From assembly GCA_002633005.1 (NCBI GenBank), contig NMRA01000186.1:622748-686747 (forward strand): a DNA stretch of 64,000 nt, in the 5' to 3' direction. Under the pieces are notes generated by a model. It saw nothing but the letters and a program-made list of their open reading frames with translations, searched no databases and was not told where the DNA came from. Each line of letters opens with the position of its first letter. Position 1 is the first letter of the stretch. This stretch comes from Phoronis australis (Eukaryota; Animalia; Phoronida). Positions 35,567 through 63,659 of this stretch are shown here, one piece after another. The translations under genes were made by a program, and so were the position numbers.

Positions 35567-37650
35567 CTACACTTTTAAGGGCACCAGCCTATGTTCTGTG
35601 ATCTTGAATTGGGCAAGTGTGGCGGCTATTGTTGTTTTCAACGAATGGTCTAAGTTGACCGTATAGGGTAAGAAATTTTCCAAATCCTTTAGCTTAAATT
35701 GGTGTATTTGAAGAAATCTTGTGAAGAGTTCAGGATCGTAATCTAAACTCAGCAGTGACTTCCAGTCTGCTGGTGTAGAAAGCTTTTTCTCATTCTCCTC
35801 ATAGACATCAAGCAGCAACCGATCTTTATCTACGCTAGTGCCAAAGATGGTAGCCAATTGACACGTGTCTTCATAAATCTGAATCAACCAGCTTATTCTG
35901 TAAGGCCATTGCTCTGTCAGCAGCACCCACCAGGCAACATCACGAACATCTTTGATGGGCCTTTGACTACCTTGTTTATTCGACCTCTCAATTAACTTCA
36001 TAACCAAGAGCAAGATATTGCAGATGCGAGTCATGTTGCGAGGATTGGCAAACACAAGTTCTGGTTGCAACTTATACTGATTTAAAGCCAGGATCAGTGG
36101 ATTTTCTGAAGCAACTGTTGAACCATCGTCCCTTGGAGGAGCATTCTTTGCAGTTCCATCAACAACATCTTTCTTCAATGGTATTCCATTACCCTCAGCA
36201 GCAGGAGCATTACTTAAAGCGGGATTACCATTGGAGGCTGATGGAAGAGCAGTTCTTCTATCATGGCTTTTGAGTTGGATAGCTTCAAGTTTCTGATTTA
36301 GAAAATCACAGACTTTATCACCGGTAATATCAGGAATGCAGAATGGAAGCTGCACAATCTTCTTCAAATACTCGTGTCCGTTGATGTTAGCATCCAGCAA
36401 CACTTGACTGAAAGACTGCTCCACTGCTTTCACTACAATTCGTGGATCTATGGCAATCACAGAAATAAAAGGCGAGGAGTCGTCGGACAATAAAATGTTA
36501 ATGGCCTCCAGAATCTTGAGAATCTTCTTATCTTCAACCCTGTCCAAGTCATCTATGACGAGCAAAATTCGAAACCTCTTCTGATACAAGCATTCCATGA
36601 ATGCGACAAGATGCTGGACAAGCAAAACCTCCATGCGAATCTTGTGCATGAAACCGAGTTGCTCTTCAAACTGAGGCCCAGTCATCTGCTGCTGCAGGTT
36701 GGATATTCTCTCTGCTTGTGATGTGTAAAGACTCTTGGAGATGTTATAGACAGATATGATTTGTGACAGTGTCGCTGCTCCCAACAATCCACCACTGACA
36801 GCCTGAAGTATGACAGCAATGTCGACAGTACTCAGAACAGTTGAATATATGATAATAGTCATTATAGAGACGAAAACAAAAGTACAAAATCCCAGCCATC
36901 CAAGGTATTTGGGCAATGAATCAAAAATCACTGTTCTGTCTTCCACTGGGACACTGTAGCAATTGGTTTGTGCATCATAGGAGTGTCCCATAGTGCTTTG
37001 GGAGGCACTAGTCTGACCAACCCTCTTGGCCTGGTCCACCGGTTGTCCACTCTTATTGGTGTCTTTCTGCACGAGATCCTCTAGTTGTTCGCTAACGTCA
37101 GCCTCTACTACACGGAACAGTCTCGTCTTCCAGTAGCCAAATTTCTTCTCCACGGCACTGCACAGGTTAGTAACTATACCCGCCCACAAGAAGTCTGAGC
37201 CTGCGTACTCCCATGCATTGAAATTGACTTGGATAATTTCTAAAGGTGCTGAATGGGAGTCTACTTTCTCTGGATGTTGCGGCTTCTTGCACAACAATAG
37301 AACAAACAGCTTGTTGATTTCCTCCAGAGAAACGCTTGAGCTGTATTTACCTAGTATACACATGCAACATGTTGCTATGACGAGAACAACAAAAATAAGA
37401 CCGACTGTACCAAGCCACGTGAGCACCGGGACAGGACTTGCTGGTGTCTGTGTGGTAGTTACTGCTGATGTGTTGAATACTGGAGAAGGCATGTCCTTCA
37501 AACCAAACCAAAACATCACAACACAGGCACCAGTGGCGACACACATGAACAAAAGAAGGAGGAGGATTAAATAAGCTAAAAACGGTACTTTTATGGAGCA
37601 ACACGGAGCTTTGTGAAAGCTTGTCTTGGTTTCCGCTTCGTTGTTCTTTG
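35567..37650 (-). CDS. KAP-family P-loop NTPase (NKPD1/Kidins220-like), terminal exon with four predicted TM helices
   Basis: FNAWEYAGSDFLWAGIV, Walker B LLVIDDLDR, YLKKIVQLPF, NPR, WVLLTEQWPYR; ttattccag acceptor at 37651; TAG stop at 35567. Confidence 0.95.
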
Positions 37651-37860
37651 CTGGAATAAAAATTATGTCTGAATCAATAAAACATAGAGATGTGGATTTC
37701 TTGCTAAATACTCAGCTATTATAGAGTGAGACAAGCTTTCCTCAAACTGAACAACATTCTGAAAGTACCACTGTTAAATCAAAACCTCACTGCACTGCTT
37801 AGATTCACTGTGTGTTGGACAATGCAGACTACAACAAAACCTGCATTTTTAATGGAGTTA

Positions 37861-38083
37861 TATAGTAGGTAAATAAAGCAACAAGAATGGATCAACTGAA
37901 ATTTTTGGATACAATAACATCCTTCGTCAACAAAAACAGAAATAAAGTAAAATAAAACACTATATGACAATTGACACTTAAAAGTGTGTGATTTTGCTTT
38001 ATTTCTGTTTCTGTTGACGAAGGATGTTATTATATCCGAAAATTTCAGTTGATCCATTTTTGTTGTTTTATTTACCTAATATA
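37861..38083. repeat. ~90-bp-arm inverted repeat, probable Penelope pLTR remnant
   Basis: Arms 37861-37953 and 37991-38083; contains TTGACGA-a-ggat[loop]atcc-GAAA-at-TTC. Confidence 0.65.
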
Positions 38084-38613
38084 TTCTACATTTCGTGAAA
38101 CAATAGTATCCTTGAGAGGATCTGGATCGTGTTATTTAGTTTCAGATTTATTTTCTCCATTAATGGAGTTAAAATTTCTTTGTGCTCATTTTTGCAGACA
38201 AATACTAACTAAACTAGCACTGTTTCTCTGCCAGTATGTATAAAATTGCCGTTCCCCGAAATACCTTGGAGACACTTTGAATTTGTGTTGTTTAACCATA
38301 ATACCACACTAAAGCAGGAAACTTATATGACTATAATGTTCTCTGGAAGCACATTAGTAACAATTTTACATCCAGATTGTCTCATCACTGTCCTGTCACA
38401 ATAGCACAGCCACTTATTCTACAGATGTCTGCATCTGGCAGGCTCAATGAGCAATGATATGTTTTTCTATACAATTCCCACTCAGCACAAGAGTGTGAGT
38501 TGGTGGCAGAACTGTTTTAAAAACTAGGCCAATCATACAATGCAATTTTCTACTTCCTAAATGATAAATAAATTAATAAAAAAAATCAACCAATGTTTTA
38601 TGCGGCAACAAAC

Positions 38614-38815
38614 CTTCTACTTCATTTGTTAACTGGTCCAACAGAAAAGTCTTTCCTTTTCCCCAGTTGCCATAGATACCAACAGTAATTCCAGTTGGTA
38701 CATCACTGTCTACTAGAAGGCTAACCAACTCTTGTGCGTAGTCTTGGTAACCAAGGCAGTCCCTTTTTCCTGCTGAACCATCGCCAGTGATGTGCGCATC
38801 TTGGACTATGAAGTT
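38614..38815 (-). CDS. KAP-family P-loop NTPase, Walker A exon
   Basis: DCLGYQDYAQELVSLL...ITVGIYGNWGKGKTFLLDQL = KAP N-terminal D.LG...YA..L motif plus Walker A (G.WG.GKT). Confidence 0.92.
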
Positions 38816-38859
38816 CTGAAAACAATCACTTATGACCATCAGTATGATTGAGACAAAGA

Positions 38860-39235
38860 ATGGTCAAAAGTGAGATGAAAGAGGATGGTAAGGTAAAGAA
38901 GGATGCAAAATGGAGGCAAGGACAAGGATATGGGAGCAAGGTAGAGAAAGAAGTAGAGAAGAGGAGGGCGAAGAAAGAGGTAAGATTTAAGGCAAGGTCG
39001 GGAAATGGGAGGTAGGGGGACAAAAAAGAGCAAAGAGAACAGTGAAGAAAGTGTTAGATGGGAGAAGGGGAAGAGAAAAAGAAAAAGAAAAAAGAAGAAA
39101 TGAGGAGGGTGGAGGTGAGAATGAGGGGAAAGGCAGGAAAATGTGAGGGAGGTGAGAAAGAGGAAAAAAGAAGAGAGTGATGTAGGTAAGGGAGAGGGAA
39201 GACAAAAAGGAGAGAAAGGGATGGTGAAGCAAGGG
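38860..39235. repeat. Purine-rich (GA) low-complexity tract; related tract at 40230-40470
   Basis: Strong G/A bias on the plus strand; aggt(a/g)aga..aggcaag..ggaaatggga..ggaca shared by both tracts. Confidence 0.75.
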
Positions 39236-41321
39236 TATTCCTGACCAGGTGTGAACCTGTGTGTGCCCTTTGGACACACCTGATAATAAAAAGTGTGCTC
39301 TTTTTCAAAAATTTGTGCCCAGTAGACAGTGAAATTAAAGTGGTGACATATGAAACAGAAACCCCAAGGGCAATCCATAATAGAATGCTGGGCTCGACCT
39401 GGGGTCGCCAATGTGACCTCAGATTGTGTTTGGCGACCTGGGAAAAATTCCAAGTCACCAAGATGTTGCCACTCATGGTTCCAGTTGACTTCAAAACTTG
39501 AAATTACTACAGATAAGTGTTTCTGGATTTATTACGGCCTTTGATTCACAATATTGTTCCGTATATTTCATAAATTGAATACATTCTGCCACCACATTTA
39601 AATTACAACAGGAAGTAAACAGACAGAAGTTGGAATGTTCAGCAAAAATTGGATTCGCGCCAGTAGGCTATGCGATCCTCTGCGTCCTATGCTTGCTCAT
39701 CGGTCGCCAGCAGGAACAGGGGTTAGAAACTGAATGTACGTATGTCTACGGGGAAAAGTAGAGAATTGAAAGGAAAATGAGTGCCTCCTTGGAAACGTCG
39801 GGGCCGATGATTTTGTTTTCAATTTTGGCAACCTTAGATTTCGTTTGGCGACCAGGCATTTTTGCTAGGCGACTTGAATGACATTTACCTATAGGTGTTG
39901 AGCATTGGAATGCCAAAGTCACAGCTGGAGCCAAGCGATGCGTTGTCATTAGTAAACAGAAAACATAATTTACAATCAAATATTCGAAAACCTAAAGGGT
40001 CTATATATTACCTAAGTGGCTGCAAGTTGACTAAATCTTGCATTTGAGTGTTGCCTTTTAAAAAATGCGCTGGGAGATGCACTGCTGCGATGTACTTGCA
40101 CCTTTTTATTTTTATTCGCTAATGGCGGGTCCAGAATATACCTGGTGAAGGACGTGAGACTGAGGCAAACACGGAAATCTCGAAATGTCGAAACATGTCA
40201 AGACGGTTTAATTCCATCACTGTTTTTATAGACAAGGAAGTGCAGAGGTAGGGAGAAGGGAAAGAGCATGGAGACAAAAAGACGGTGAAGGACAAGGTGA
40301 GACTGAGGCAAGAAAGAGGAAATGGGATGGAGGGAGGACAGAAAGAAAAAGGAGAAAGCTGTGTGAAGAAGCAGGTGAGACGGAGGTCAGGATGGGAGAA
40401 CAGGAGTAGACGGGAAGATAAGAGGAGGAGAGAGGAAAGTTGACAAGGTAATTTGGAAGAGAAAGTGAGGTAATGCAAGAATGGGATTCATGCTACAAAA
40501 TGAGGAGTGATGAACACCCACATTCAGCTTAATGCATATTGTGAAATGTGGACAATGGCAATTGGATAATAAGAGACAAATAGTGAGCAGAAAAAATGAG
40601 ATCCAAACAAGAAAACCATATTATAAAAACTAGTAGCCCGTTCAAAAATTGCACCCTGACTTCATTTGTCTTCAGTCACAGTCTCGGCTAACATACACTG
40701 AACTCCGACAGAAGTGACAATCAAAGAATAAGCAATTGTGACGGGACGTTAGTAACGCTTATTGTTATTCTTATTTAGTTGCAAATGTTCAGTTATTCTT
40801 ATGCTAATGTCTTTGTTGCGTCTCAGTGCGCCTTTGTTACGTGGGCATGCGGGCGCGACTGTATGTGTTGGGCACTTCGCTAGCAACAGGCTTAGGAGAA
40901 GGGTCTTTCCTTCCTTAATTTGCCTTCATGAAAATTGATTGTTATCATGTGTAACTGAACTGAAACATATGCCTGATGAGATGAAATACACATTTTTGAT
41001 GTTCAGTGGAGACTTGCTCTGTTACACAATGAAACTGGGTCAACGTGTCTTTAATGTTACCACCATGTAGCCATAAAGCACAAATGCCCCCCCGTCTCTT
41101 TATTCAAGCTGCATCACATTAGCATGAGCATGCACGCCACAGCTTTCAGAGAGACAAAACTATTAGACACCTGACATGGCTCTGAGAAGTGAGAGTTTTG
41201 TTGGGATACTTCCACGGGCTATTGTATTATGTTTACTTAATATTCTGCAATTCCTTGGTGACCAGAAAGAAATTTATGAGACAGTTCAGTCCTTAAACAA
41301 TTTGTACAAAAATTGTGTTAC

Positions 41322-41344
41322 CTTCTCTTGCCCATCTTGTTCAT
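41322..41344 (-). CDS. 23-nt linker micro-exon (DEQDGQEK)
   Basis: tctttgtttcag acceptor, gtaaca donor; converts phase 1 to phase 0, as needed to join the flanking exons. Confidence 0.62.
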
Positions 41345-41543
41345 CTGAAACAAAGAACACCAAAGATGATCAGATACAATATGTTATTTCACATACAACA
41401 AATCAGAATGTCATAGTATGGAGATTCTACAATCGACATTCCTTATGCTTATAACACCACGACTGGCTTTAAGGACATTTGTGATGAATTAAGTGATAGC
41501 TGTGAAATCAGATGTATTTAGGATGACTGTCCAAAGTAATTTA

Positions 41544-44376
41544 ATAAGAGCACTGCGGAGCGATGAAATGCGCCCACGAATGCATGGCAAATGGTGCGCT
41601 TCTAGGGATGCTTAGATTACGACACCAGATTACGCAAAGTATGTTGAATCGCTCCGAAACGAAAACATATCATCATTTCTCAAGTGAAAGCAATTTACCA
41701 AATTTCACAGCGTTTGTCGAATTCAATCTGAAAGTCGTCATCGTTTGTTGTCAACACAAATACACTTGCTAAATTAAATAATAAAGACCCTGCAGTGGGT
41801 TTAGGAGATACAGCTATGGGTGCAAAAAACAAAACTGCTAGTAGGAGGCGCCACAGTAGTTGAAGTTGTCAGAAAATTATTGTCAACTGACTTATTCACA
41901 CTAAGAACACATATGCCAATTTTCACAATCATCCTTAAAGTAGTTTGGTTGATACAGAGGCTGACGCCAAAAGGAGACAAGAAAACAGTAAAAATGGCCA
42001 CTAGATGACACAAAATATGCCAAATCCATCCCAAAACAGGAACATGTCATCGTTTCCTTAACAGAAAGGTAATTCTAAAATGTCATAGAAATCTCTCAAG
42101 GAACTTCAGAGAAATAGAGGAAAACGGGAAAAAATGAAAATGTCACTAGGGGGCGACAGCGTTCGTTGGATCCGTTTGAAAGTCATCATCCTGCATTATT
42201 AACTTCATATCAAGATACTTGCTAAAGATCCTGCAGTGAGTTTAGCACATATAGCTGTGGGCACAAAAAATGCCACTAGGAGGCGCCCCAGTGGTCGAAG
42301 TCATCGGAAAATCAACGTAAACTGTCCTCTTCACATTAACATATAATAATATGCCAATTTTCTTAATCATCCTTAGAATGGTTTGGATGATAGAGGGGTG
42401 AATGTAAAAAACTCAAAAACATTGGAGCATTGAAATGCGCCCACGAATGCATTGCAAATGGAGTGGTTTTAGGGTTATTTATTTGTATCATAAAATGGCC
42501 ACTAGATGGCGAAAAAACGTACAATCCTTCTAAAAACAGGAACATGTCATATTTCATAAAAATCTGTCACTGAATTTCAGAGAAACTAAGGAAAACAGAA
42601 TAAAATGAAATTGCCACTAGTGGGCAAAGCGTCCGTTGGAGCAGCCTGAAAGTTGTAGTCGTCTGTTGTTATCTTCATATAAATACACTTACTAAATTTA
42701 ATAAAAATCCTGCAGTGGATTTAGGAGATATAGCTATGAGCGCAAAACAAAGCAAAACTACCACTAGGAGGCGCCACAGTAGTTAGTCGCCATCAACAAA
42801 TGTTCTCTTCACACTGAAAACATATACGCCAATTTTCAAAACCATCCCTGGAATGATTTGGTTGATAAAGGGGTGGACGCCAAAAACAAGATTTGAAAAC
42901 AGCAAAAATGGTGACTAGGTCACCAGGTGAAAAATACGTCGATTCCATCCAAAGACAGGAAAATAGCATCATCTCACCAATAGATGCCTACATTTAAAAT
43001 TTTATGAAAATCTGTTGAGGACCTTTGAAGATTCAGAGTTAAACGTAAAAACTAGAATTGCCACTAGCGGGCACACCAGTGGTCAGATCTGTCTGAAAGT
43101 CGTCGTTGTCCGTAGTCAACATCATTTAAATACACTCGCTAAACTAAGTAAAGATCCTATAAAAGATTTAGGAAATACTAAATTTAATAAAAATCCTGCA
43201 GTGGGTTTAGGAGATACAGCTATGGGCGAAAAACAAAACAAAACTACCACTAGGAGGCGCCACAGTAGTTAGTCGCCATCAACAAATGTTCTCTTCACAC
43301 TGAAAACATATACGCCAATTTTCAAAACCATCCCTGGAATGACTTGGTTGGTCAAGGGGTGGATGCCGAAAACAAGATTTGAAAACAGCAAAAATGGCCA
43401 CTAGGTGGTGCAAAATACCTTGATTCCATACAAAAACAGGATGATAGCATCATCTCACCAATAGATGCCTATATTCAAAATTTTATGAAAATCTGTTGAA
43501 GACCTTAGACTACAGACTGGTAAATGTAAAAAACTAAAATTGCCACTAGGAGGCACACAAGTAGTCAGATCCATCCAAAAGTCGTCGTCCGTTGTCAACA
43601 TCATATAAATATACTTGGCATGCTAAATTAATTAAACATCCTATAAAAGATTTAGGAAATACAGCCATGAGCGCAAAAAACAAAACTGCCACTAAGAGGC
43701 TCCTCAGAACACAAAGTCGTCAGAAAATCATTGTCAGCTGTCCACTTCATAGTAAAAACATACATGCCAATTTTCACAATTATCTTGTAACTGTTTTGGT
43801 TCCACTTGATAGATGAGTGGATGCCAAAAAAAACACAATAAAAATGGCCACTAGGTGGCACAAACTAGGTTGAATTCATCTGAAAACAGATGCCTGTATG
43901 CCAAATTTTATGAAAATATGTTGAGGACCTTTGAAGATACAGAGGTAAACGTAAAAAATAAAACTGCCACTTGGTGGCACACCAGAAGTCAGATCTGTCT
44001 GAAAGTCGTCGTCGTCCGTTGCTAACATCATATTAATATACTTACTAAATTTCCTGCCACTAGGAGGTGCCACAGAAGTCGAAGTCATTGGAAAATCATC
44101 GTCAGACGTCAACCTATGTGGCAAATTTCATGAAAATCTGTTGAAGTCCTTTGAAAATACGGAGGTAAACGTAAAAAACTAAATTGCCAGTAGGAGACAC
44201 GCCGATAGTCGGATCCATCGGAAATTCGTCGTCATCGTCACCTTCACTAGGAACAAATCTGCCAAATCTCAAGATCCTGTAAGGGGTTTAGGAGATACAG
44301 CTGCAGACACCGGACACCCAGACAGAGATGACAGCAACATAATGCACCCACATATAAATATGTGGGCGCATAAAAA
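41544..44376 (-). mobile_element. Near full-length copy of the Helentron-type family, with an extra internal subterminal repeat near 42435
   Basis: Begins aataagagcactgcggagcgatgaaatgcgcccacgaatgc, ends cccacatataaatatgtgggcgcataaaaa. Confidence 0.85.
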
Positions 44377-44561
44377 GTACCGTTATTCAGCACATGCATA
44401 ACTTTCTCCAAGTAATCTTAGTTCATAAGATGAATCAATGCATGCAAGAGAAGTTTACAGTGAAAGGACTGGGGTTGCATGTTGATGTTTCGAATGAAGA
44501 ACGGTCATCCACAAAAAACTAATAGGAAATGGTGTACAGACTGAATGTTGGAGTCAAGGAA

Positions 44562-44658
44562 TGACTGAATAACACTCGGATAAACAGCTGACTGAATAAC
44601 ACTCAGATCCACAGCTGACTGCATAGCACTCAGATGACTGAATAACACTCAGATCCAC
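44562..44658. repeat. Short tandem repeat (tgactgaataacactcagat...), about 4 copies
   Basis: Directly visible. Confidence 0.75.
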
Positions 44659-45755
44659 CCATTTAAAATAAGGAAGCGATTCTTAGTAAGTTTTGTTCAT
44701 GGCAGTCGGTTGCTCACAAATTTACTTTCGCCATGACAACAAAAGTGAAGAGACCCAGCAATCTATTTTAATGTATCAATTGACACTGCTTGCCCAAAGA
44801 CAAGTGTAGTAAATGAATGGTAATGTGAAAATTAACATGTTTATGACATGTAATTTTACCACAAATTTACAATAAACTTATAAGCTACAATCAAAAATAA
44901 AAGTGTGCAATTTCTCTAATGATGACCAATTTCATCTCAGAAAGAAGTTAGATTTTGGTTTATCATATTGTTCTCATACTGGTAAACACCAATGATGCTT
45001 CATTTGGTAACTCAAAAATTAAGGCGAGGGTGTTAAACCGAGCATGCGTGTCAAAAATGCAAATTTTAAAAAGTGTTCAGTCACGGATGGTTGTTTACTC
45101 AGTTGATTCTGGTAAATACCCAAGGAAGTGCAATTACTTCAGAGTGGCACGGAAGCGTCAAATAAAAAGTTGTAGGAGAATATGGGTATCTTCCTGCTCC
45201 AATAAGGCCTGGTGCTACTACGAGTCTGACTAAACACTACTCAAGCTCAGGCAGCTAAAATTCACATTAGACAGGGGTGCACAAAGACAAAACCACATCA
45301 GCTTTTTAGGAAGTCATGGCTGTATAACTTGAGGGGCTGTTTGCCGGGTGAAAGCGTTTAATTTGTGAAAATCGTGGGGATTTTGGGGGTTTGTGGACGA
45401 GTATGGCAGGTGAGTTTAATTAAAAGAACTGAAGAAAGGTTTCTTAATGTGTAGAGCTTTCTGGAAAGGCTAAGAATACAGAAAAGAGGTAGAGGCGAAT
45501 AAATTTAAGGAAAGAAATCATTCTTATTTTAATTATCAAAGTAAAACAGTCAATGTCATTTCATTACATAAAAACAAATGTGATCATGACCTGTCAGTAC
45601 GCTTATTAAGTAAGCACTGTGTAACTGACATTGTCACTAATGTCATGGAGCACCTCGAATCCAATTTTTCCAAACCCATAACTTCGCAGATCTCATGCAT
45701 AAAGAACACACAGAGTTGGCAGAGTGCATGTACCATAATCTATGTCTGTAATTAC

Positions 45756-45932
45756 CTAGAAACCTCTTCACCAGACTTGGATGTGGTACATGGTTATGAA
45801 AATTCGTGAAGAAAGAATCTATCTCTTGAGTAACATAGTCAGTCCATCCGAGGGAGTTCTCATTTTCCTCCATGAAGCCTCGGCCTGCTTTATTATTTCT
45901 ACGCGTTTCAGCCAAAATCCATTTTCCAATTT
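45756..45932 (-). CDS. C-terminal extension of the CRAL-TRIO domain
   Basis: ttcttgcag acceptor, gtaatt donor; phase 1-1; EIGKWILAETRRNNK...DYVTQEIDSFFTNFHNHVPHPSLV. Confidence 0.72.
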
Positions 45933-46119
45933 CTGCAAGAAAACAATCAACAATAGTAAAGCTTATTATAAAACAGCTACTAGGAAATTACAACACTTAC
46001 AGCAAACATGCAGCGTGGATAAAAACGAAATATGAAATGTGCCATTGGTGATGTGCCTGAGACAAAGGCAATGGATGGGAGCCTAAAACTAACTAAAGTT
46101 AACTGTGACTAAAGGTATA

Positions 46120-47564
46120 CTGTATTTGCCCTAATAAGCGCCCTTAAATCTATAACCCCCCATGCGTTTTCAGACTTTGCTAAAACAAGCGCCCAGTCCA
46201 TGAACGTGTACATGTGAAAAATGCCTTACCTACAGTTCTAAAATTCGACAGTAATGTCTTCAATTTATCAATAACATGCGACAGTCCTGAAAAAAATCAT
46301 TGAACGTGGAATTTGTAGACCACAAGCCTCGCCACTATGTCAGTATTTAACTGCGACTGTACACTTCAAACTTCCGTTGTGCTTCAAAAAGAACGCAAAG
46401 TTTTTTTGCTGATCTTGCGAGGAATGTGTCCCCATTATGGCCTGACCTTTCAGAACAGACGCAGCGTACTGGTCCAGCAGACGCAGCGTACTTGTCAAAG
46501 GGATTGTATTGAATTTTGCCCGTACAGATGTTGTTTCTCAACAAGAATCTAAATTTCTTTGTTAACATGAAAACCGCGAATCGAAGACTAATAAAAAATT
46601 GACCTTTGTTAAAAGCACGGGGCCACGAAGCTCGCGCTATATACATGCACCTGTCATCGAAGACAGTTATCGGGAACTATCTATTCATGAAACGGGTAGC
46701 AAAGCATCGGCAAGAAATAAATATTGGCATTAATATCCCGTGGCTAACATTAAGGTTATTTTTAGGAGGAATTATCTAATTAATCATAATCGGTGTTTCT
46801 TAAGTCAACCCACTGATAGTGAACACTTTCGCACTCTTACACCACCCAAATCTCCTGGAAAATAACTGTTAGACTGTCACGCATTCAGTCACCCGGCGAT
46901 ACAATTCTTGAACATTTTTTAGCAGATGAGATCAACAAGTGCTAAATAAAACACATTCTGCTTTACTGCTTGTGTTAATTTCTTTAGTTACAACGCACAC
47001 CTGGATCATTACACTGCATTTATTCTGGCAAGTGAATTCTGATGACACAAACGCGCTCGTTCACTCACACAATATACAGACGAACTTCAAAACAAATGTC
47101 ACGTGTCACAATAGCATGTGTTCGTCCAGAAGTTTTTCTCATGTTGCAGAGTACGACCTAGCGCAGCTTTGGACTTAATCCTGACTCTACAGGAACTTAA
47201 AAATCTTAGGGACGCTATTTTGAAAACTTAAGGAGTACTTCATGTAATTTGTTGAGTCAAAACTGTATTTTTATGCAAGAATTCAAGTTGATCATCAGTT
47301 GACAAGTTTTCGCCCTGGGATTTCAGCACAATTTTCTGAAAAATGATCAAAATTTAACATCGAAATTTGATAGCAGTGCACTAAAATTTAGAAGAAAGTG
47401 TGTCATAGGTTACAGACATGTCACAGAGCATAAATTTGATGAATCCTAGCTTAAGAATTCACCCGTTTCGGAGACTGGGTTTCAACCTTCTTAGGCTATA
47501 ATAAGCGTCCCCCTCCTAAAATATTTTTTCTAAGCACCCTGGGCGCTTATTAGGGCAAATACGG
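46120..47564. mobile_element. Non-autonomous Tc1/mariner (pogo-like) element
   Basis: 24-bp TIR C(T/C)GTATTTGCCCTAATAAGCGCCC at both ends; TA on both flanks. Confidence 0.85.
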
Positions 47565-48216
47565 TACCTCACATGACCTGCAAACTGGGCATTTTAGGAG
47601 TTCAAAATGTCCATACCATACATATGCATGCACATAAATTTACAGCATGTATAGTTTTTTTCCATACTTCAAAAGCTGGACATGTCAAAATGTGTCAACA
47701 TCCAGCACAACCTGTCACAGCAAAAACGTAGTACTACATTGATCATTGGAGAAAAATCATTTGAAGATTACATTTACTTAACAGGAATAAAACTGTTTTT
47801 TAATTACCTCAGTTGCAACGATACCTATCCCTGATATTCCTTGACAAACATTTTCTCACATTTTAACAACTTTTGCCCTGGTGTGAATTTACTATCCATG
47901 CAACAATTGACAAGTGATGCAAATTGCTATCTAGACTATTGTATCAGCATCCACAAATTTTGAGAAAAGATTGACTTTTAAACAATTTCTTTCTTTCAAC
48001 GAAAGGCTAACATAAAAAAGTTACACGATGTCACAAACTGCTATTAGCGCCTCTGTTTGTACGACTAAAAACAGACAAACCAGAGACAGATATGGGTCAT
48101 GTGTTATGTTGACAAAAAGGCAACACTGACAGTGAAAGAGTTAAAGCGCTACTTACTATAATAAATCATTGTTTGTGAGATCAATAAATGGGATATATGA
48201 TGCTAATGTGAGCAAG

Positions 48217-50224
48217 CAGTGGCGGATCTACGGGGGGAGGGGTTCAGGGGGTTTAAACCCCCCCTCGGGCCAGGACCCAAAAATTAAAAAAACAAAAGCG
48301 TATCCAGCAAAACAAAAACGGCACCGCCAGCGTGTGTAAACCCCAAGTAAACCAACTTGGAAAAAATTGAGGGGGGGGTTCACTCTGAAAATATAGTTTT
48401 TTTGAATTGTGAATTGCTGAGTCTTTGTGGCTCATCGGCAAAACGCGCGGGGATTAATTGTGCGCGCGCTTCCATCGACACTTCTGAAGTAGCCTAGCAT
48501 TTTAGATGGATTCACCGCTGTAACAGCAGTTCTATAGCTGATTTCTTTTGGTAACTAGCTTCTTTACTCTAAGATATATTTTGATTTGATTAGGGAAAAT
48601 ACTGCGGTGCCGCAACCCTGATATTCAGGCGAATTGACGTGCTACGTTTTTACCTCATCTGTCATGCCGTGTCGTTCTATTACAATCCACACGTTTGTAA
48701 GTGATGTATAGTAAAGTTGTCTTGCGCAATACCATACAGTGTACATTACATGTACAGGTACATGTAATATTGTGTACATGTACATGTAATATTTTTGAAA
48801 AAAATTCTTTTTCCGAAGAATTGCTATTGTGGCGGGCGCCGTGGTCTGGTCGCGAGTCCGTTTGAAGACACACTCTCTAACAAGTTATGTCTATACAAGG
48901 AATGACCAAGGGGGCACTCACATTGAGAAAGTGACCGCATTCGCGAAAAGTGTACAGTACCAGAAATTGCGGGGAGGCTGTTCTTTCACAACAAAGTCTT
49001 GCGGGACTCGTGCGATGTTCAATAGGCCTCCTAAGGAGCCCTAGTTCCAACCTCAACACCTACCGTCTGTCTACCTGTGTGCCGTCTTCTATACTGGGAA
49101 TTTTCGCACAAAGGCTCACCCGATGAAATGCTCATACCCATGGGCATTTATTTGATATTAGTTCTTCGGGTTTCAAACGTTCAGACATTGGGACTTTTAT
49201 TTCGAAAATTGCAAGAGATGCAAATAGGTCCTGGGATGCTTCGTCAAGGTTTGAAGTAGTCCATGATGAACGGATCAAATTTAGTTGCGCATGTAAGTCT
49301 TTTGAATGGACTTGGCAACCTCAATGGTCTTAGTGTCAACTGAGCTGCGAAACGAGATGCTGACATTGTAGAGGCTTACAAGCTCATTGACACAGCAGTT
49401 GACGAAGTGCAAGCGTTGGGAACAAACATCGAAGATATNNNNNNNNNNNNNNNNNNNNNNNNNNNNNNNNNNNNNNNNNNNNNNNNNNNNNNNNNNNNNN
49501 NNNNNNNNNNNNNNNNNNNNNNNNNNNNNNNNNNNNNNNNNNNNNNNNNNNNNNNNNNNNNNNNNNNNNNNNNNNNNNNNNNNNNNNNNNNNNNNNNNNN
49601 NNNNNNNNNNNNNNNNNNNNNNNNNNNNNNNNNNNNNNNNNNNNNNNNNNNNNNNNNNNNNNNNNNNNNNNNNNNNNNNNNNNNNNNNNNNNNNNNNNNN
49701 NNNNNNNNNNNNNNNNNNNNNNNNNNNNNNNNNNNNNNNNNNNNNNNNNNNNNNNNNNNNNNNNNNNNNNNNNNNNNNNNNNNNNNNNNNNNNNNNNNNN
49801 NNNNNNNNNNNNNNNNNNNNNNNNNNNNNNNNNNNNNNNNNNNNNNNNNNNNNNNNNNNNNNNNNNNNNNNNNNNNNNNNNNNNNNNNNNNNNNNNNNNN
49901 NNNNNNNNNNNNNNNNNNNNNNNNNNNNNNNNNNNNNNNNNNNNNNNNNNNNNNNNNNNNNNNNNNNNNNNNNNNNNNNNNNNNNNNNNNNNNNNNNNNN
50001 NNNNNNNNNNNNNNNNNNNNNNNNNNNNNNNNNNNNNNNNNNNNNNNNNNNNNNNNNNNNNNNNNNNNNNNNNNNNNNNNNNNNNNNNNNNNNNNNNNNN
50101 NNNNNNNNNNNNNNNNNNNNNNNNNNNNNNNNNNNNNNNNNNNNNNNNNNGCGCCACGCGCCTAGGATTCGACCTTGGCGGGAATCTTAAACCCCCCCTT
50201 GCTGAAATCATAGATCCGCCACTG
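48217..50224 (+). mobile_element. Defective hAT transposon spanning an N gap
   Basis: TIR CAGTGGCGGATCTA / TAGATCCGCCACTG; relic LNGLSVN*AAKRDADIVEAYKLIDTAVDEVQAL resembles PRKRIR/ZMYM-type hAT transposases; flanks share gcaag. Confidence 0.75.
49439..50150. other. Assembly gap (N run); a second gap lies at 16820-16835
   Basis: Runs of n. Confidence 1.
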
Positions 50225-50605: not shown

Positions 50606-50809
50606 CATCTTGAGAGAGCTTAGATACCAGGTCAGCAGGTTCGACACATTGCACATTAAATGGTATGTCACGATTTCCAATCCATCTCTGAGTCTCTTCG
50701 CGCCATCTCCCTTGAGCATTGAGAATGTACACCTGAACAAAAGACCATGCACCAACAATGTTAGTTGGCACAAGGTTGTCCAGTGTGTGGATTTCATGAG
50801 ACCAAAAGC
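50606..50809 (-). CDS. CRAL-TRIO domain exon (second half)
   Basis: tttttcag acceptor, gtacgt donor; phase 1-1, stop-free GFWSHEIHTLDNLVPTNIVGAWSFVQVYILNAQGRW...; DMQ|GF junction and VYILNA strand fit CRAL-TRIO. Confidence 0.75.
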
Positions 50810-56906: not shown

Positions 56907-57515
56907 AACAAGAGCAACACGGAGTGTTTAAATGCGCCCACGAATGCACTGCAAATGGTGTGCTTCTAGGGTGTTTATTTGCATCATAAAAATGGTCACT
57001 GGATGGTGCAGAATACTTCAAATTCATCAAAAAACGGGAAAATGTCATCGTTTTTCAACAGAAAGCTAATTACTACATTTCATGAAAATCCGTCAAGAAA
57101 CCTTAGAGAAACAGAGCAAAATGGAGAAAATGAATTTGCCACCACTGGGGCCAAGCATTCGTCGGACCCGTTTGAAAGCTGTCCTCTTCCGTTATCAACG
57201 TCATATGAATACACTTGCTAAATTTAATAAAGATCCTGCAGAGGGCTTAGGAGATACAGCTAAGAGAGCAAAAAACAAATCTGCCACTAGGAGGCGCCAC
57301 AGAAATTGAAATCGCAAAATCATTGTCAACCGTTCTCTTCACACTAAAGTCAATTTTCACAATCATCCTAAGAGTGGTTTGGTTGAAAGAGGGCAGATGC
57401 CAAAAACAGACAAGAAAACAGTAAAAATGTCCACTAGAAGGCACAAAATACATCAAATCCATCTGATAACTGGCAAAATGTCACTGTTTCTGTGAAAGAA
57501 AGATCTTTACCAAAT
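56907..57515 (-). mobile_element. Truncated copy of the Helentron-type family
   Basis: Begins aacaagagcaacacggagtgtttaaatgcgcccacgaatgc, followed by about one unit. Confidence 0.8.
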
Positions 57516-58142
57516 TAGTAGAATAACTTGACTTAGTAGCAGCGTTGTGTTTTTTGTGGATTATCTCGGTCCGTCAGTGAGATGGTTGTAAGTGTAGAAC
57601 ACTCAATTACACTTACCTATTAAAACCAACTGACAGTAGCAAGATGAGGACTGTCTTTATTAGACATTCAAGTGAATGGAATTATAATACAAGTTACGAA
57701 TATGTGGGTTGCATGCACTAAACTTCATGATTCAAGATTCTACAAGAAATAACAGTAAACAACTCTAAGAACTTTCATAGCAATCATCAGAACTATTCTG
57801 TTGTGTTTGCCATATGCGGTAATGCTCAGCTGTGTTGAGGCTATGATTCTGTGAATGACCATTACACAGTCTTGTTTACTACAGAGATCATCAAAACGTG
57901 TGGATGCACCACGCACCGGATGGGTCGCTTACTCGGCAGACAGCCAAAACAAGTTACTATAAACACAAACAATTTGCTAGCAAAGAAATAATATCAATAA
58001 TACTATCAAACTAGATATAGTAAATATATAGACGCTGCGGTTGGCTGGTAGTGAAATATATCAAATAAACGCAGAAAAATCTGCCGCTTATGGGATGTAT
58101 GGCATAACAGTTGGCTGTAAACAGTAATTGCGCAGATATCGG

Positions 58143-58216
58143 GTCCTCAGTAGCTCAGTGGTAAGAGCACTAGACCGGCAATCTAGAGACCTGTGGTTCG
58201 ATTCCAAGTTGGGGTT
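58143..58216 (+). other. tRNA-derived sequence (SINE head or tRNA pseudogene)
   Basis: A box TAGCTCAGTGG, B box GGTTCGATTCC, anticodon stem CTAGA/TCTAG with loop CCGGCAA; mismatched T and acceptor stems. Confidence 0.6.
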
Positions 58217-59828
58217 CCTGATTTTACTATCAAACTAACATACTAAGTAATATATATCATGAATTTCAAGGATTTCATGACACTCCTGCGCCACAGAGAA
58301 AGCTGAATATTTGAGCTAGGGTTTTAGCTCTTTCCATGTAGTGGATCGCCTTAATGTTGTCCAATGCTTTCCTTGCAGCATTACGTACTGGTCGAAAAGA
58401 GATGATGATGATGCTTTCAAAATCTATCTTTTAGTTACCACTGTAACCATCTTTGTAGGCTGGGTATAGGTTACGTCATCTGTGTTTGGGTGCAAGCAGA
58501 GTCCCAGGACAATGCATAGTCAGCTGTCTTTGTTACAAAACTCAAAAGGCGAGAGTTATGCTAGAAAATGACGTTTTAAGAATGTTTTTCACTTAAACGA
58601 CTGGAAACGGGCAAGGTGAGTCGGAATAGTATCCCAGATTGTGCATGCACCCCATCAGTCACTGGCTCTGCGATATACATTTCACGATGACGTAGAACTC
58701 GTACCAGGCTGTATGAAATTTCGTGCCCTAACATTAAAAATCTAGCTGTATTTTGGCGATAGTCTTCAAACAGTTAGTTGGCTGGCTGTGCAGTTTACTG
58801 TTTTGGCCCAGCATATAGGGCATCCAGCCAAAATCGGAATATTCTGATTTGGGTCGTTCCCATAGGCCTGAGTAATTGAATTCTGATACTGGCGGCCCAT
58901 ATCAGAATATATTTTTGATTGAATTTAAAACGTTCAATTGATTACAAATCCTTATAATTCGGTATATGTGTTCATGCAATCCAGACTTTATGGGCCCGTA
59001 TTTAAGAATGTGTAATAAATAATTGAATAAAAATTTTGAAAGTAATGATTTTGATCAATTTTAATATTAATTGACATGAACAATTAATGAGTTTCCTTGA
59101 TTTTCCACGTATTTTGCAATAAATTGAACGGCCAGTCATCGCTGATTCCAATACGATGGTGACATGGTAAAAGCCAAATTCCTTGTAATGATGATGTCAT
59201 AGACTTCGATTGGTGAAAGTATTATCTCAAGTTTTTTTGGGCTAAAAGGGGTTCGTGATGGGTTACTGTATTGTCAAAGGTCTACTTAATTAACAAGTGG
59301 GGTATGCTATGACACTGTATGTTGATGTTTTTCACCAATGCACGTATTGTAGATATAAAAATAGTCATTTTGTCACTATATTAGACCTTTAAAGATAATT
59401 AAAGTAACTGTTGTGAATGTCTGGTATTTCTAGACTTTGATGGGATACTAACACATTCACTTGTCTGGTAAAACAAAGAATGGCAAACTTGACTAATACT
59501 GCTAATGAAAAATGAGTAGTCAAAATATGATCCCATTCTCAGCAAAAAATTAAGCTTCGATTTGACCACTTATGGCTTTAAAATTGATCTCAACCATTTC
59601 CTTACTCAAATGAGAAGTGACTTTTGGTTTTGCAAAGTTGGATATCACGCTCCACAAACAGAAACACAATGACACGTCAACTAGTGCTTGATCTTAAGCA
59701 GTAACAAACTGTCAGTTCATTCCAAACACAGAAATCACTTATGAGACCAATGTTTAACACTAACAGTAAGTCATGTAAATCAAAATATAGGATTTTGCAA
59801 CGCAGGGCGGATTTTACAGACACTTTAA

Positions 59829-60796
59829 ACAGTACACACCATGGATTTTTGCACATTTTGAATTACCGGTGGCCACAGACTAAATGTATGACGTAAAGTT
59901 TAGCTAAACCCATGTTTATTTTGTGTAATTAGCTCGAAATTTTGATTTTTCTTTCAATTTTGCCAATTTTCACATTTCCCACCATGTGACGTCATGGGTT
60001 GAACACAAGAGATCAGCGACTAACATTGAACAATGGCGGAGAGTGCAGTGAATTTGAAAGCGACGACCATTATCAGCAAGAATTGAATGAATACTATGAA
60101 GAAACGTACGGGAATGGTGGCCAGGATGAGGAAATGGGGTTGCACGAAAAGGAGAACAAGTTTGATGTGCTTCCGGCTGCGTACTTTTCTACTTTGAGCC
60201 TTACGCACTGGATCCTCCAGCGAGAGAAGCGGCCTCGGGCTCGGCGAGTCAACCCAGTCATCCAACAGACGATCCTGAATTAAGAGCCGATGTTTCTGAA
60301 TGATAAATATTGTCCTTTATTGAACCAGGCCTTCGTCGTAACATCTCCTGTTACTGGAGTCGAAACACGAGTCCTCAAAGTGGGCACTGAGAACACAGAG
60401 TGGCCCCGTACCGAATCGCTTGGTCCACGATGAGGTCCCACACTCTCGTTCAGCGCATGAAGCGATGCCACTTCTGCGCAACTTCGGTGTCCTGCGGAAC
60501 ACAGAGACGTTCTCCGCCTGGCAGCTGTTGCTGCAGCCTCCGGAAACACATCTTTTGATCCCTCTACGAACCTTCTCGACGCTAAATGTACTTTGCTTTC
60601 ACTTCACTCTATACACTTCGTCTCTGATCCGAACAGTATGGCGAACGACTTGGGTTCAACCCATGACGTTGTACATAATTATTATTTTTTTTCAATTTTT
60701 GCGTGTTTCTTTATGAGCTGTGCAATAAAGGCACTGAAATCAAGTAAGATATAATAATAAAATTTATTTTGAGGTACTAGTCATGTTGTGTACACT
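59829..60796 (-). mobile_element. Kolobok-like THAP element, copy 2 (opposite orientation)
   Basis: Collinear reverse complement of 30432-31397; TTAA flanks; LCVLSAHFEDSCF THAP C..HF motif. Confidence 0.72.
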
Positions 60797-60858
60797 TTAA
60801 ATAGTTGAAGCATAACAAAACGCGTTGAAGATAAGAGAACATTGGAATAAAACCATAC

Positions 60859-61063
60859 CTTGCATATCAATATACCACACAATGCCTTGAACAGACGGGG
60901 TGTTACTGTCACTTCTATAGCGTGCAGCTTCTAACAGATTCTTTACATGGGTCCGATAATGATGATTGTACACTTCAGCACCAACCGACTCATCCCTGAA
61001 CTTGTCTTGTCCGAAACACATGTACAGCACCGCATTCCCGTCACGGTCATAACCCACTTGTCT
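60859..61063 (-). CDS. CRAL-TRIO (Sec14-like) domain exon
   Basis: RQVGYDRDGNAVLYMCFGQ...GIVWYIDMQG fits the Sec14 G.D..G..V and V.I.D..G motifs; canonical splice sites. Confidence 0.85.
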
Positions 61064-61789
61064 CTATAGAACACAACATGATAAAAATTGTTTCACACAA
61101 TTACTACAGCTACGCTTGTAACTACAAGCCTGCGTTATGTCTTTGAAATGAAGTTTTGATTTTGTCTTAGGTATGGCTATACATTAGTAGTCTCACCTTG
61201 TTTCTAACTCTCATTGTAAAGTGATAGACATGAAGCATATCTTGGCATTATAAGTCAAGTGCTTGTGCACTCAAGATATGTTTGTGAAATGCCAAATCCT
61301 TTTGAAGCCCAACAATACCCTCAAATTTGAACAGGGAGCAAGTTAAGGCTGAACATGTTCTTGTCCAGTGGAACTACTCCATCTAAACTGATACAAAGTG
61401 CGACGTTTTTTGGTGACATTCTCCTTTAACTAAAAAGAAATGGGTATGTAAATGCAGTGAATGCAATGCTACTTGGCGTATACAGCATGTTTGAGATCCA
61501 CACTGTGTACAGCCTTCAACCAAAATTCTGAATCTAGAATATGTAACCAGTGAATGAGGAATTCAATAACTAGCAGACCTTCTCAATAACTAGCAGACCC
61601 TTGGTCTTCCACTTACCAATCTTGTTGCATGTGGTGACAGCACTACAATTCAAGTATTGTCATAAAACTATTCATACTAAGTTCAGACACATTTTAATCG
61701 CCTGCAAACAGTTCAAACCTCAAATAAAGTTTAGCTATGAACTCAAATATTAAAACATTTTCCAGAGTAGCTGGTTAACAAAAATTGGC

Positions 61790-62250
61790 ATAGCATGGAG
61801 ACACCGCAAAATCCATGAGAACAGCACAGAATCCATGGAGATAGCATATAGTCCATAAGACAGGGCAGAATCTATGGAGACAGTACAGCACCAATGACAG
61901 CACAGCACTATGGAAACAGCACAGCACCTTGGAGCCAGCACAGCATCCATGGAGACAGCACAGCATCCATGGAGACAGCACAGCATCCATGGAGACAGCA
62001 CAGCATCCATGGAGACAGCACAGCATCCATGGAGACAGCACAGCACCACGGAGACAGCACAGCATCCACGGAGACAGGATAGCATCCATGCAAACAGCAC
62101 AGCACCAGGGAGACAGCACAGCATCCATGGAGACAGCACAGCACCATGGAGATGGCACAGCATCAATGAATAAAGGATAGCATTTATAGTGGAGCCGGCA
62201 CAGCATCCATGGAGACAGCCCATCACCATGGAGACAGCCCAGTATCCGTG
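61790..62250. repeat. Minisatellite, 20-bp unit ggagacagcacagcatccat
   Basis: Perfect central copies with degenerate flanks; explains the overlapping ORFs on both strands. Confidence 0.95.
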
Positions 62251-62785
62251 AAGACAGTAAAGCACCCATGTAATCAGAACAGCATTAGTGCTTTTGCCAC
62301 CCTAAGTATATCAAAAGCACTCAAATTACAACAGGATGTAAACAGACAGAAGTCGGAATTGTTTGACAAAAATCAATGTTTCCAATCATCTGTGTTCTGC
62401 AAGAATTCAGTTATATTGAGGTAGGCGAGCAAGTCAAAGGACAATTCCGTCAACATCGGGACCCCTATAGAATGAGGGAAAAGTCAGAATTGAGTTGCAT
62501 TGTGCGACGTGGCGATGTGTTGCGTAAAGGTATTAGAATGTATACTGCAGCACCCAGTGATGTGTGTATATTTACACAAGAATTGGACCAGGTAAGCTAA
62601 ATTTGTAATGACAATGACATTGCCACCTTTTTAGGTCAGTAATTTCCGACCTCAGTTTTATCGACCTGGGATTTTCGCCAAGTCACATTTGGTGACCTGG
62701 CATTAGGCTAAGTCTGCTAAGTATCAAGCACTGGCATGGCATCCATGGGGACAGTCTATTGGAAGTCATCACATGTTGCTATTAC

Positions 62786-62884
62786 CAGTGAGTGATATCC
62801 CAATGTATGTACACAGCGCCGGCATAGGACATGGTTTAGAGACTTGAGATGTTCCCGAACACGATATCCACCGCTTTCAGATGC
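62786..62884 (-). CDS. CRAL-TRIO-KAP fusion gene, first visible exon (5' partial)
   Basis: ttttttcag acceptor, gtaata donor; ASESGGYRVREHLKSLNHVLCRRCVHTLGYHSL joins RQVGYD in phase 0. Confidence 0.75.
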
Positions 62885-63656: not shown

Positions 63657-63659
63657 CGA

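Follow-up and report, generated by a model that had tools for sequence, protein, structure and literature searches.

To our knowledge, neither an input nor a biochemical job has been assigned to the KAP P-loop NTPases of animals, and NKPD1 receives only passing mentions in the literature searched. PMC13552941 makes the same point about follow-up of the family in bacteria; it describes bacterial KAP fusions as anti-phage proteins whose KAP domains regulate the fused modules and need Walker B, and, together with 10.64898/2026.03.01.708804, the related Tmn as acting via the membrane. The layout given for Kidins220/ARMS in PMC11431642 comprises N-terminal ankyrin repeats and C-terminal SAM, KIM and PDZ-binding parts. 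In PMC9823006, the Sec14 domain of Kalirin, devoid of the CRAL_TRIO_N lobe and sealed, shows micromolar lysolipid binding in a surface groove, and head-group recognition requires CRAL_TRIO_N and the gate.

The window (64,000 nucleotides of Phoronis australis contig NMRA01000186.1) holds a gene that joins these two themes. Like NKPD1-like/Kidins220-type proteins (PF07693), its product has Walker A GxWGxGK[ST], Walker B hhhhDDLDR, the YLKK and NPR motifs and four predicted transmembrane (TM) helices. Its N-terminus is a Sec14-derived domain, whereas Kidins220 has ankyrin repeats and other relatives carry C2+ankyrin (Branchiostoma), PAW+ankyrin (hemichordates), TIR or DUF4062 (environmental) or nothing, most being without any Sec14 domain. 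Since Pfam detects neither ankyrin nor SAM in exons 1–4, 6 and 7, nor in the counterpart from Lingula anatina described below (P0001), the protein falls outside the Kidins220/ARMS layout. PifA, EF_KAP and Tmn (KAP/YobI) share the NTPase class and the possession of TM helices, but are bacterial anti-phage proteins, and the family HMM described below detected no Sec14 domain in bacterial-type KAP matches. A Sec14/CRAL-TRIO–KAP NTPase pairing, held in the first-pass annotation to be undescribed, was not found in the literature searched, outside of which lie Aravind et al. 2004 and Komlosi et al. 2024. Because invertebrate KAP NTPases swap their N-terminal modules freely, the Sec14-KAP gene adds a new architecture to a family already known.

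Gene model and transcript

The gene lies on the minus strand and consists of the following features.

62786..62884, minus strand: exon 1 (99 nt), CxxC...GYH motif of the CRAL-TRIO subfamily; AG/GT
60859..61063, minus strand: exon 2 (205 nt), first CRAL-TRIO core strands (RQVG.D..G..V.Y.CF.Q ... W..D..G)
50606..50809, minus strand: exon 3 (204 nt), probable degenerate middle of the Sec14 domain (pocket/gate region); 3' end spliced in reads
45756..45932, minus strand: exon 4 (177 nt), C-terminal extension of the CRAL-TRIO subfamily (W..E..N ... YV ... PHP)
41322..41344, minus strand: exon 5, 23-nt micro-exon, Sec14-KAP linker; fully read in 25 reads
38614..38815, minus strand: exon 6 (202 nt), KAP NTPase start, carrying Walker A (GNWGKGKT, model aa 285); PF07693 E 1e-9
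35567..37650, minus strand: exon 7, coding part (2084 nt including the stop); PF07693 E 5.6e-28, hydropathy and motifs
32672..35566, minus strand: likely 3' UTR (~2.9 kb), from RNA depth; AATAAA at 32677 near its end

On recheck, the coordinates, AG/GT boundaries and junction phases (0,1,1,1,0,1) of the first-pass model proved exact: the seven exons are each flanked by AG/GT and join into a single open frame of 2994 nt (997 aa), 5' partial and with a terminal stop only, the remaining two frames of the spliced model containing 56 and 68 stops. Exon 1 is an internal exon with no in-frame ATG. Upstream of it, the sole GTAAG donor, at 63037, was rejected because its phase does not fit the ATG at 63185; a weaker donor at 63123 is in phase with this ATG and offers a candidate 5' start. 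Junction 1–2 is supported by homology, exons 1 and 2 scoring about 40–47 bits when adjacent versus 20–27 bits apart (of 500 control shuffles, 359 were reported, with a maximum of 4.4), and junction 6–7 by the unbroken KAP profile. None of 13 candidates for an overlooked exon in intron 2 scored against the CRAL-TRIO family. Length and colinearity suggest the position of exon 3 within the Sec14 domain; by itself, this exon has no significant similarity to the Lingula protein (353/1000 shuffles as high) or to the stand-alone CRAL-TRIO protein P0099 (295/1000). A 712-N gap (49439–50150) lies inside intron 3, across which reads splice directly.

The two junctions around the micro-exon (45756->41344 and 41322->38815), on which the predicted fusion depended, are both crossed by RNA. 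In three runs of one study, 25 reads pass from exon 4 through exon 5 into exon 6, and 17 reads splice exon 3 to exon 4; since reads splice exon 3–4 and exon 4–5–6, the Sec14 and KAP parts are on one mRNA, and the fusion is one spliced transcript across the domain junction. Exon 4 attracted 56 reads from about 18–19% of each of runs X2–X4, and 0 from X1; the mapped RNA was confined to 45756–45932, bar a few X2 reads at 44850–45050, with the orientation expected for minus-strand RNA and a depth of about 3–22. Loose read ends before 45756 (3+4+18 reads, agreement 0.99–1) reproduce, letter-perfect, the predicted exon 5 followed by 7 nt from the start of exon 6, not intron. Behind 45933, the loose ends (4+13 reads) carry the last bases of exon 3; the match is exact in X4, and agreement is 0.93 in X3. 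No further loose ends at exon 4 reached the 3-read threshold. As annotated, exon 4 is free of stops before its donor, and an independent end of the CRAL-TRIO exons was not seen, all listed loose ends at this donor leading to exon 5/6. RNA depth is 4–7 over the exon 6 bin; on the minus strand it is about 3–24 over exon 7 and continues to the 32581 bin, with zero below, and contig X1-1 spans 32712–33753 in the likely 3' UTR. This UTR includes a repeat at about 34300–34900, and reads over 32000–49400 are dominated by intronic repeats. The reads also contain a second exon-4 haplotype with 6 clustered differences and 3 residue changes, which is represented by 5 reads and could instead come from a paralogue.

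The C-terminal part is an intact KAP P-loop NTPase with four predicted membrane helices and putative NTP hydrolysis, in agreement with the original assignment. KAP_NTPase matches exon 6 (profile 1–44, 38.5 bits) and exon 7 (profile 49–289, 98.5 bits) at a cut-off of 20; Walker A and Walker B (LVIDDLDR, aa 670) are both intact, and between them hydropathy predicts TM helices at model aa 331–349, 386–404, 553–571 and 575–593. Exon 7 further encodes the YLKK and NPR motifs and a helical C-terminal region, the protein ending ~150 aa past NPR. The 4-TM pattern and KAP motifs are the same in P0001, P0002 and P0009; the relatives include amphioxus and Ciona, and the top ones are 29–35% identical. An N-glycosylation sequon occurs in the TM1–TM2 loop of both the window protein and the Lingula protein. 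Neither an effector domain (Pfam scan of the exons) nor a solved structure resembling exon 7 was found.

The N-terminal domain and its Lingula counterpart

Of the two domains expected in the protein, an HMM scan returned KAP_NTPase but not CRAL_TRIO, PF00650 giving no match for exons 1–4 scanned one by one, nor for the whole of P0001. A family HMM built from 24 stand-alone CRAL-TRIO proteins, by comparison, gave 43.9 bits for the window model and 57.3 bits for the Lingula protein, versus at most 2.4 bits for the other 97 of 98 KAP matches. Exon 2 is the sole significant six-frame piece in the window against this HMM (34.1 bits, E 2e-9) and is matched by P0099 in tblastn (9e-6), to which the whole window N-domain aligns at 38.8 bits. 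Exons 1 and 4 align with Lingula residues 16–28 and 174–233 (0/1000 shuffles as high for each) and with P0099 residues 116–129 (1/1000) and 297–330 (8/1000), respectively. A search of 1.84 billion sequences with the P0001 N-domain recovered P0099 at E 3.2e-5; P0099 carries PF00650 at 1.4e-26, and its family matches Sec14p in the PDB at 2.8e-20. Judged from these similarities, the N-terminal part is homologous to a specific CRAL-TRIO subfamily (P0099 and P0101–P0123), as the first-pass annotation had supposed in more general terms. Its members, named 'random slug protein 5-like', 'real-time-like' or 'PITP 3-like', bear a CxxC-GYH signature with an HDPRG/PHP extension and range over echinoderms, molluscs, Trichoplax, a flatworm, choanoflagellates and Rhodelphis. 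They are soluble proteins of about 300–440 aa, mostly with CRAL_TRIO_N and with full HYPE-RL and N-P motifs, whereas the fused window copy is degenerate and 27–28% identical to them at best.

The same architecture occurs, unannotated, in one of the 98 KAP relatives, L. anatina XP_023930333.1 (P0001), recorded just as 'kinase D-interacting substrate of 220 kDa'. It is the best KAP match to the window protein (E 4.8e-83), with similar Sec14-KAP spacing, and its nearest Atlas cluster is NKPD1 (score 0.93). The two proteins are 37–38% identical in the trimmed KAP alignment and 23% in the N-domain, the homology of which is indicated by a score of 98 (0/2000 shuffles as high). In a word-index search with the Lingula N-domain over proteins of 560–1784 aa, it recovered itself alone among 516 candidates; there was no usable Atlas match, and a single-sequence PDB search gave nothing under E 0.3. 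In both KAP trees, of 44 rows (quick method; P0039 left out, P0045–P0098 unused) and of 21 chosen rows, Lingula is the nearest row to the window, but neither tree supports the two as a sister pair; in the 21-row tree the pairing has support of 49/23, within a 7-row set at 91/97 that also includes unnamed proteins. Podarcis NKPD1-like rows form long branches in an open fork, and mammalian NKPD1 is absent from the matches. A single fusion event for both animals is likely but unproven, because the sister support is low and the pairing of their N-domains in the tree is a meeting of long branches.

Built on the CRAL-TRIO alignment, the Lingula N-domain models as a Sec14 alpha/beta fold (pLDDT 75.5) with a confidently modelled beta-sheet core and residues 114–148 under 50; because of that alignment, and because it is of the Lingula domain, the model is not independent of the sequence result. 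The best 11 of 50 VIA rows are all Sec14-family (Z 7.7–4.3; next unrelated row 3.9), headed by the Kalirin Sec14 domain (7ur2; Z 7.7 against the tool's mark of 8, rmsd 3.7, 129 aligned), which Foldseek also ranks first (best E 7.9e-3). The whole Lingula protein folded without an alignment was unusable (pLDDT 38), and a complex prediction of its N-domain and KAP part, alignments not used, gave no answer (score 0.00). Like the Lingula domain, the Kalirin one is a lobe-less Sec14 domain at the N-terminus of a signalling enzyme, but it belongs to another Sec14 lineage (10–16% identity) and is joined to a spectrin-repeat RhoGEF instead of a membrane ATPase; it is a functional analogue, not kin.

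The fused domain is degenerate in the very part that forms the gated lipid pocket. Of 60 family-conserved columns, the window keeps 31 and Lingula 30, compared with a mean of 56 and a minimum of 43 in subfamily members. Those kept are mostly peripheral: CxxC, GYH, the first strands, and the C-terminal W..E..N and PHP. The pocket/gate motifs HYPE-RL, N-P and T..K are largely lost, the window retaining just the P of HYPE, and family HMM positions 151–218 have no match in either fusion. Two Cys and two His are common to the family, the window and Lingula; HDPRG is kept in Lingula and lost in the window. The Lingula model, beginning 15 aa before CxxC, is without a CRAL_TRIO_N lobe, and none was matched in six frames of the window, where the gene is 5' partial. 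End branches of the fused N-domains measure 2.7–3.0 versus a family median of 0.46.

Possible roles of the fused domain

We tentatively favor, at somewhat less than an even chance, a degenerate Sec14 domain that tunes the 4-TM KAP ATPase by sensing lipids with low affinity or by membrane targeting, rather than serving as a lipid shuttle; lipid binding and ATPase activity of the window protein are both putative. The two membrane hairpins would keep the Sec14 domain and both ATPase halves on the cytosolic face, a topology in line with the sequon shared by both TM1–TM2 loops, and the Sec14 domain may contact the same bilayer as the ATPase. Ligand binding may then alter nucleotide turnover or oligomer state, upon which the ATPase would assemble or dismantle a membrane complex in the way suggested for KAP proteins, the Sec14 domain being a swappable input module on a membrane ATPase switch. 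Kalirin provides a precedent for fused lobe-less Sec14 domains acting as regulators, and relatives hold ligand-binding modules in the same N-terminal slot, although 23% identity between the two N-domains is low for a conserved ligand site. Because the degeneracy hits the gated pocket, the alternative in the first-pass annotation of moving a lipid is less likely than being regulated by or binding one.

A role in defense, as a counterpart of the bacterial anti-phage KAP proteins, is doubtful but deserves comparison. The Sec14 copy would be an integrated, fast-evolving decoy or sensor directed at a pathogen lipid or at an effector that targets host Sec14 proteins, with the hairpins as output. The bacterial anti-phage fusions and the membrane-acting Tmn introduced above, the lineage-specific expansions of invertebrate relatives with shuffled N-termini, the long end branches of the fused N-domains and the second exon-4 haplotype agree with it; however, that haplotype is the one of 5 reads that may be a paralogue, no animal KAP immune sensor is reported in the literature searched, the Pfam scan revealed no effector domain, and the same architecture in two distant animals speaks for a stable role. 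In a related and similarly speculative proposal, invertebrate NKPD1-like KAP proteins would be modular sensor-switches, heirs of bacterial defense, in which the fast-evolving Sec14 domain senses a lipid signal of membrane damage or microbial lipid and fires the ATPase oligomer, making the product a lipid-gated KAP NTPase.

It is also conceivable, with comparably low probability, that the ligand has been lost and a pseudo-Sec14 scaffold, structural or protein-binding, caps the ATPase. The pocket may be dead because 31/60 columns are kept, exon 3 is without similarity and residues 114–148 have pLDDT <50. The kept periphery, the missing lobe in the Lingula model and the conserved Cys and His residues, for which we infer possible stabilizing zinc binding, fit such a cap; the retained beta-sheet core does not, nor does the lipid binding of Kalirin's similarly reduced domain described in PMC9823006.

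Quite unlikely is a machine in which the ATPase drives lipid extraction or flipping and the Sec14 domain ferries the lipid to another membrane. Stand-alone donor members are full two-lobed Sec14-like proteins, a human NKPD1 variant reportedly causes lamellar ichthyosis, and NKPD1 is said to be linked to skin lipids; but CRAL_TRIO_N and the gate, needed for head-group recognition in PMC9823006, are missing or degenerate in the fusion, the linker of ~30 residues from the last Sec14 motif to the KAP start is short for spanning two membranes, and most relatives function without a Sec14 domain. A read-through or mis-joined model of two genes, for which one may cite a possible KAP-only first exon and the short reads of one study only, none spanning exon 1 to exon 7, is largely refuted and highly improbable, given that 25/25 loose ends listed at the open exon-4 donor lead to exons 5 and 6 and that Lingula has the same fusion.

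If the domain is a dead cap, the finding reduces to one more shuffled architecture. In either case, a public record labelled Kidins220 conceals an unannotated domain, and a CRAL-TRIO subfamily with a Cys/His signature, widespread and scarcely described, comes to light. The gene offers one polypeptide on which the binding of lipids and the rate of the ATPase are measurable together, and a Sec14-derived fusion, invisible to Pfam and kept in two distant animals, suggests lipids as an input to KAP NTPases.

Transcript and surroundings

The seven minus-strand exons proposed in the first-pass annotation are each preceded by AG, the first six being followed by GT with junction phases of 0, 1, 1, 1, 0 and 1, and their joined frame indeed runs for the predicted 2994 nt to one terminal stop, whereas the other frames contain 56 and 68 stops:

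62786–62884 (−), exon 1, Sec14-like
60859–61063 (−), exon 2, Sec14-like
50606–50809 (−), exon 3, Sec14-like
45756–45932 (−), exon 4, Sec14-like
41322–41344 (−), exon 5
38614–38815 (−), exon 6, KAP NTPase
35567–37650 (−), exon 7, KAP NTPase

RNA was drawn from four runs (X1–X4), namely one contig set (a tenth of sampled words) and three runs of raw RNA from a single study, which carry the species label of the window. In wide read mapping, the joint tables were taken up by intronic repeats, and minus-strand RNA covered exon 7 at a depth of about 3–24, continuing to about 32600, near an AATAAA at 32677. Narrow mapping onto exon 4 placed 56 reads, which covered the exon and had loose ends of two types; 34 of the 38 X4 reads matched at ≥99% identity, and the RNA therefore comes from the same species as the window. 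In 25 reads (3, 4 and 18) the sequence before the 45756 donor is exactly that of the 23-nt exon 5 followed by the opening 7 nt of exon 6, and in 17 reads (4 and 13) the end of exon 3 lies behind the exon 4 acceptor. Since these letters are the exon sequence predicted by the model and differ from the genomic intron, exons 3-4-5-6 are spliced together in mRNA. Thus, the junctions 45756→41344 and 41322→38815, on which the proposed fusion depended, are crossed by 25 reads, and one mRNA spans the boundary between the Sec14-like and KAP parts, the read-level joins (short reads) being those of exons 3-4-5-6. That two genes were mis-joined in the model is, given these joins across the domain boundary, highly improbable.

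Upstream, 63037–63260 is a possible candidate, judged from its motifs, for the promoter and first exon of the KAP gene; its strong donor at 63037 does not keep the phase of the next exon, whereas a weaker donor at 63123 does. Other features of the window are as follows.

13650–14444 (+), PARP12/ZAP-like gene, exon encoding tandem CCCH zinc fingers (PF25261, E 1.8e-6)
near 14630–14848, possible WWE-like piece, judged by eye
16820–16835 (16 N) and 49439–50150 (712 N, intron 3), assembly gaps
25522–26766 (−), 414-aa stop-free frame of low complexity, downstream of the KAP gene 3′ end on the same strand, with no Pfam match; it may be a large exon belonging to another gene
34300–34900 (within the likely 3′ UTR), 37810–38390, 40700–44800 and 46000–49400, dispersed repeats with heavy RNA cover from other loci
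61794–62285, 20-bp tandem array
63037–63260 (−), E-box, CCGGAAGT and AAGATGGCGG (which we take to be ETS- and YY1-like motifs), ATG at 63185 and GTAAGT donor at 63037
63659–63913, 127-bp duplication

The KAP part and its relatives

Pfam KAP_NTPase matches exon 6 (profile positions 1–44) and exon 7 (49–289). Besides Walker A (aa 285) and Walker B (aa 670), the 997-aa model has YLKK and NPR motifs together with four hydrophobic segments (aa 331–349, 386–404, 553–571 and 575–593), arranged as in the relatives from Lingula, amphioxus and Ciona. The TM1–TM2 loop, which holds two sequons in the Lingula protein, has one here at aa 363; this fits a luminal loop, and the N-domain and both ATPase halves would therefore face the cytosol.

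The exon 7 search, in which fusions up to 1213 aa were reachable by the word index, gave 98 proteins of 381–1213 aa (7999 candidates scored), led by P0001 (Lingula anatina XP_023930333.1) and followed by amphioxus, hemichordate, tunicate, lizard, unnamed and bacterial-type proteins. Among the 11 relatives scanned, the N-termini differ (C2+ankyrin, PAW+ankyrin, ankyrin, TIR and DUF4062), and one protein bears OTU and EF-hands at its C-terminus. Invertebrate KAP architectures other than that of the window (P0002, P0003, P0007, P0010–P0012, P0014 and P0030) comprise C2-ankyrin-KAP and KAP-OTU-EF-hand in amphioxus and an expanded PAW-ankyrin-KAP group in hemichordates.

Identity and degeneracy of the N-terminal domain

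The CRAL-TRIO identity assigned to the N-terminal part was upheld by a subfamily profile, though Pfam scans of exons 1–4, each alone, gave no relevant match. Among the 98 KAP hits, the first 236 residues of the model match P0001 only (score 98, 0/2000 shuffles), so that the architecture extends beyond the window to this single protein. Searched against 1.84 billion representatives, the Lingula N-domain matched three proteins: P0001 itself, P0100, rejected as a repeat artefact, and P0099 (E 3.2e-5), a Rhodelphis protein with complete CRAL_TRIO_N plus CRAL_TRIO. The subfamily that P0099 defines (24 members at E ≤1e-20 among 1918 candidates) occurs in echinoderms, molluscs, Trichoplax, a flatworm and choanoflagellates. 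Its hallmarks are the motif CxxC-GYH and an extension, HDPRG/PHP, and its profile matches 32 PDB sequences including Sec14p, Pdr16, CRALBP and alpha-TTP (best 2.8e-20). This profile scores 43.9 bits on the window model and 57.3 on P0001, against ≤2.4 on the other 97 KAP hits and ≤4.4 on shuffles. Exons 1, 2 and 4 are individually significant against P0099 or Lingula; exon 3 alone has no significant similarity to either.

The stand-alone proteins (P0099, P0101–P0123; alignments A2, A3) spread widely over animals, choanoflagellates and Rhodelphis under inconsistent database names; their near-invariant CxxC, GYH, HDPRG and PH motifs could form a putative metal site. At 45808–45844, the RNA contains a second haplotype or paralogue with 6 clustered differences, 3 residue changes and no stop (4/5 reads in X2, 1/3 in X3, none in X4; 5 in total), nearer to the family's GC.SY motif and consensus than the window sequence.

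AlphaFold2, supplied with the family alignment, modelled the Lingula N-domain at pLDDT 75.5. With this model, Foldseek placed Kalirin Sec14 at the top (E 7.9e-3, none under 0.001), and in VIA the top 11 rows were Sec14-family (best Z 7.7, rmsd 3.7, 129 aligned). As CRAL-TRIO proteins made up the alignment, this structural match does not stand independently of the sequence evidence. The expected Sec14 fold is supported for the Lingula N-domain, the model being Lingula's and not the window's.

Both fused domains are degenerate. Of 60 columns that are the same in ≥80% of the subfamily, 31 survive in the window and 30 in Lingula, against a mean of 56 and a minimum of 43 among members. The end branches of the two are some six times as long as the family median, and the identity between them is only 23%. 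The losses lie in the middle, at the pocket and gate, and affect the HYPE-RL, N-P and T..K motifs; profile positions 151–218 are without match in the fused domains, and this region has pLDDT under 50 in the Lingula model. The CRAL_TRIO_N lobe is absent from the Lingula gene model; the window gene is 5′ partial.

Origin and possible role of the fusion

Lingula is the window's nearest row in the KAP trees, and the two group with unnamed proteins at support 93 (quick, 44 rows) and 91/97 (careful, 21 rows), the sister pair itself having 49/23 in the careful tree. The N-domain tree joins both fusions at 98, though as long branches. Nine unnamed proteins (P0004, P0006, P0013, P0015, P0018–P0020, P0022 and P0024), from contigs of 0.8–3.5 Mb, form one clade adjoining window and Lingula; they probably represent the last exons of a family that has expanded, and all lack Walker A, as expected of gene calls on the last exon only. 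The N-termini of their genes may also be Sec14-like. Because the same subfamily was taken at the same place in both, a single old fusion ancestral to window and Lingula would be the simplest reading.

According to PMC9823006, canonical Sec14 proteins keep their lipid in a gated pocket and depend on the N-terminal lobe for head groups, and the Kalirin Sec14 domain, fused, lobe-less and sealed, binds lysolipid weakly in a surface groove. Bacterial KAP domains govern fused modules via the ATPase site (PMC13552941), and the related Tmn is described in 10.64898/2026.03.01.708804 as an oligomeric membrane ATPase triggered by a cytosolic sensor. We tentatively read the Sec14 domain best as an input module that would sense or bind a membrane lipid and would thereby tune the KAP ATPase, all functional steps being predicted; we favor this because the pocket is degenerate, the linker short, and the slot filled by other modules (C2, PAW, ankyrin or TIR) in relatives. 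A defence sensor or decoy seems unlikely, and so, to the same degree, does a ligand-free scaffold, perhaps zinc-bound through the two Cys and two His that are retained throughout. A lipid-moving machine is still more doubtful.

The claim that a Sec14-KAP architecture is undescribed has held: the literature searched, mostly outside subscription journals, yielded no pairing of KAP with Sec14/CRAL-TRIO or invertebrate terms, CRAL_TRIO is in none of the ten best Atlas clusters for the Lingula protein, and the public record of that protein gives the KAP domain only. The finding is verified and testable, yet domain swapping is habitual in the known KAP family, of which this gene encodes a member bearing an undescribed, Pfam-invisible N-terminal module.
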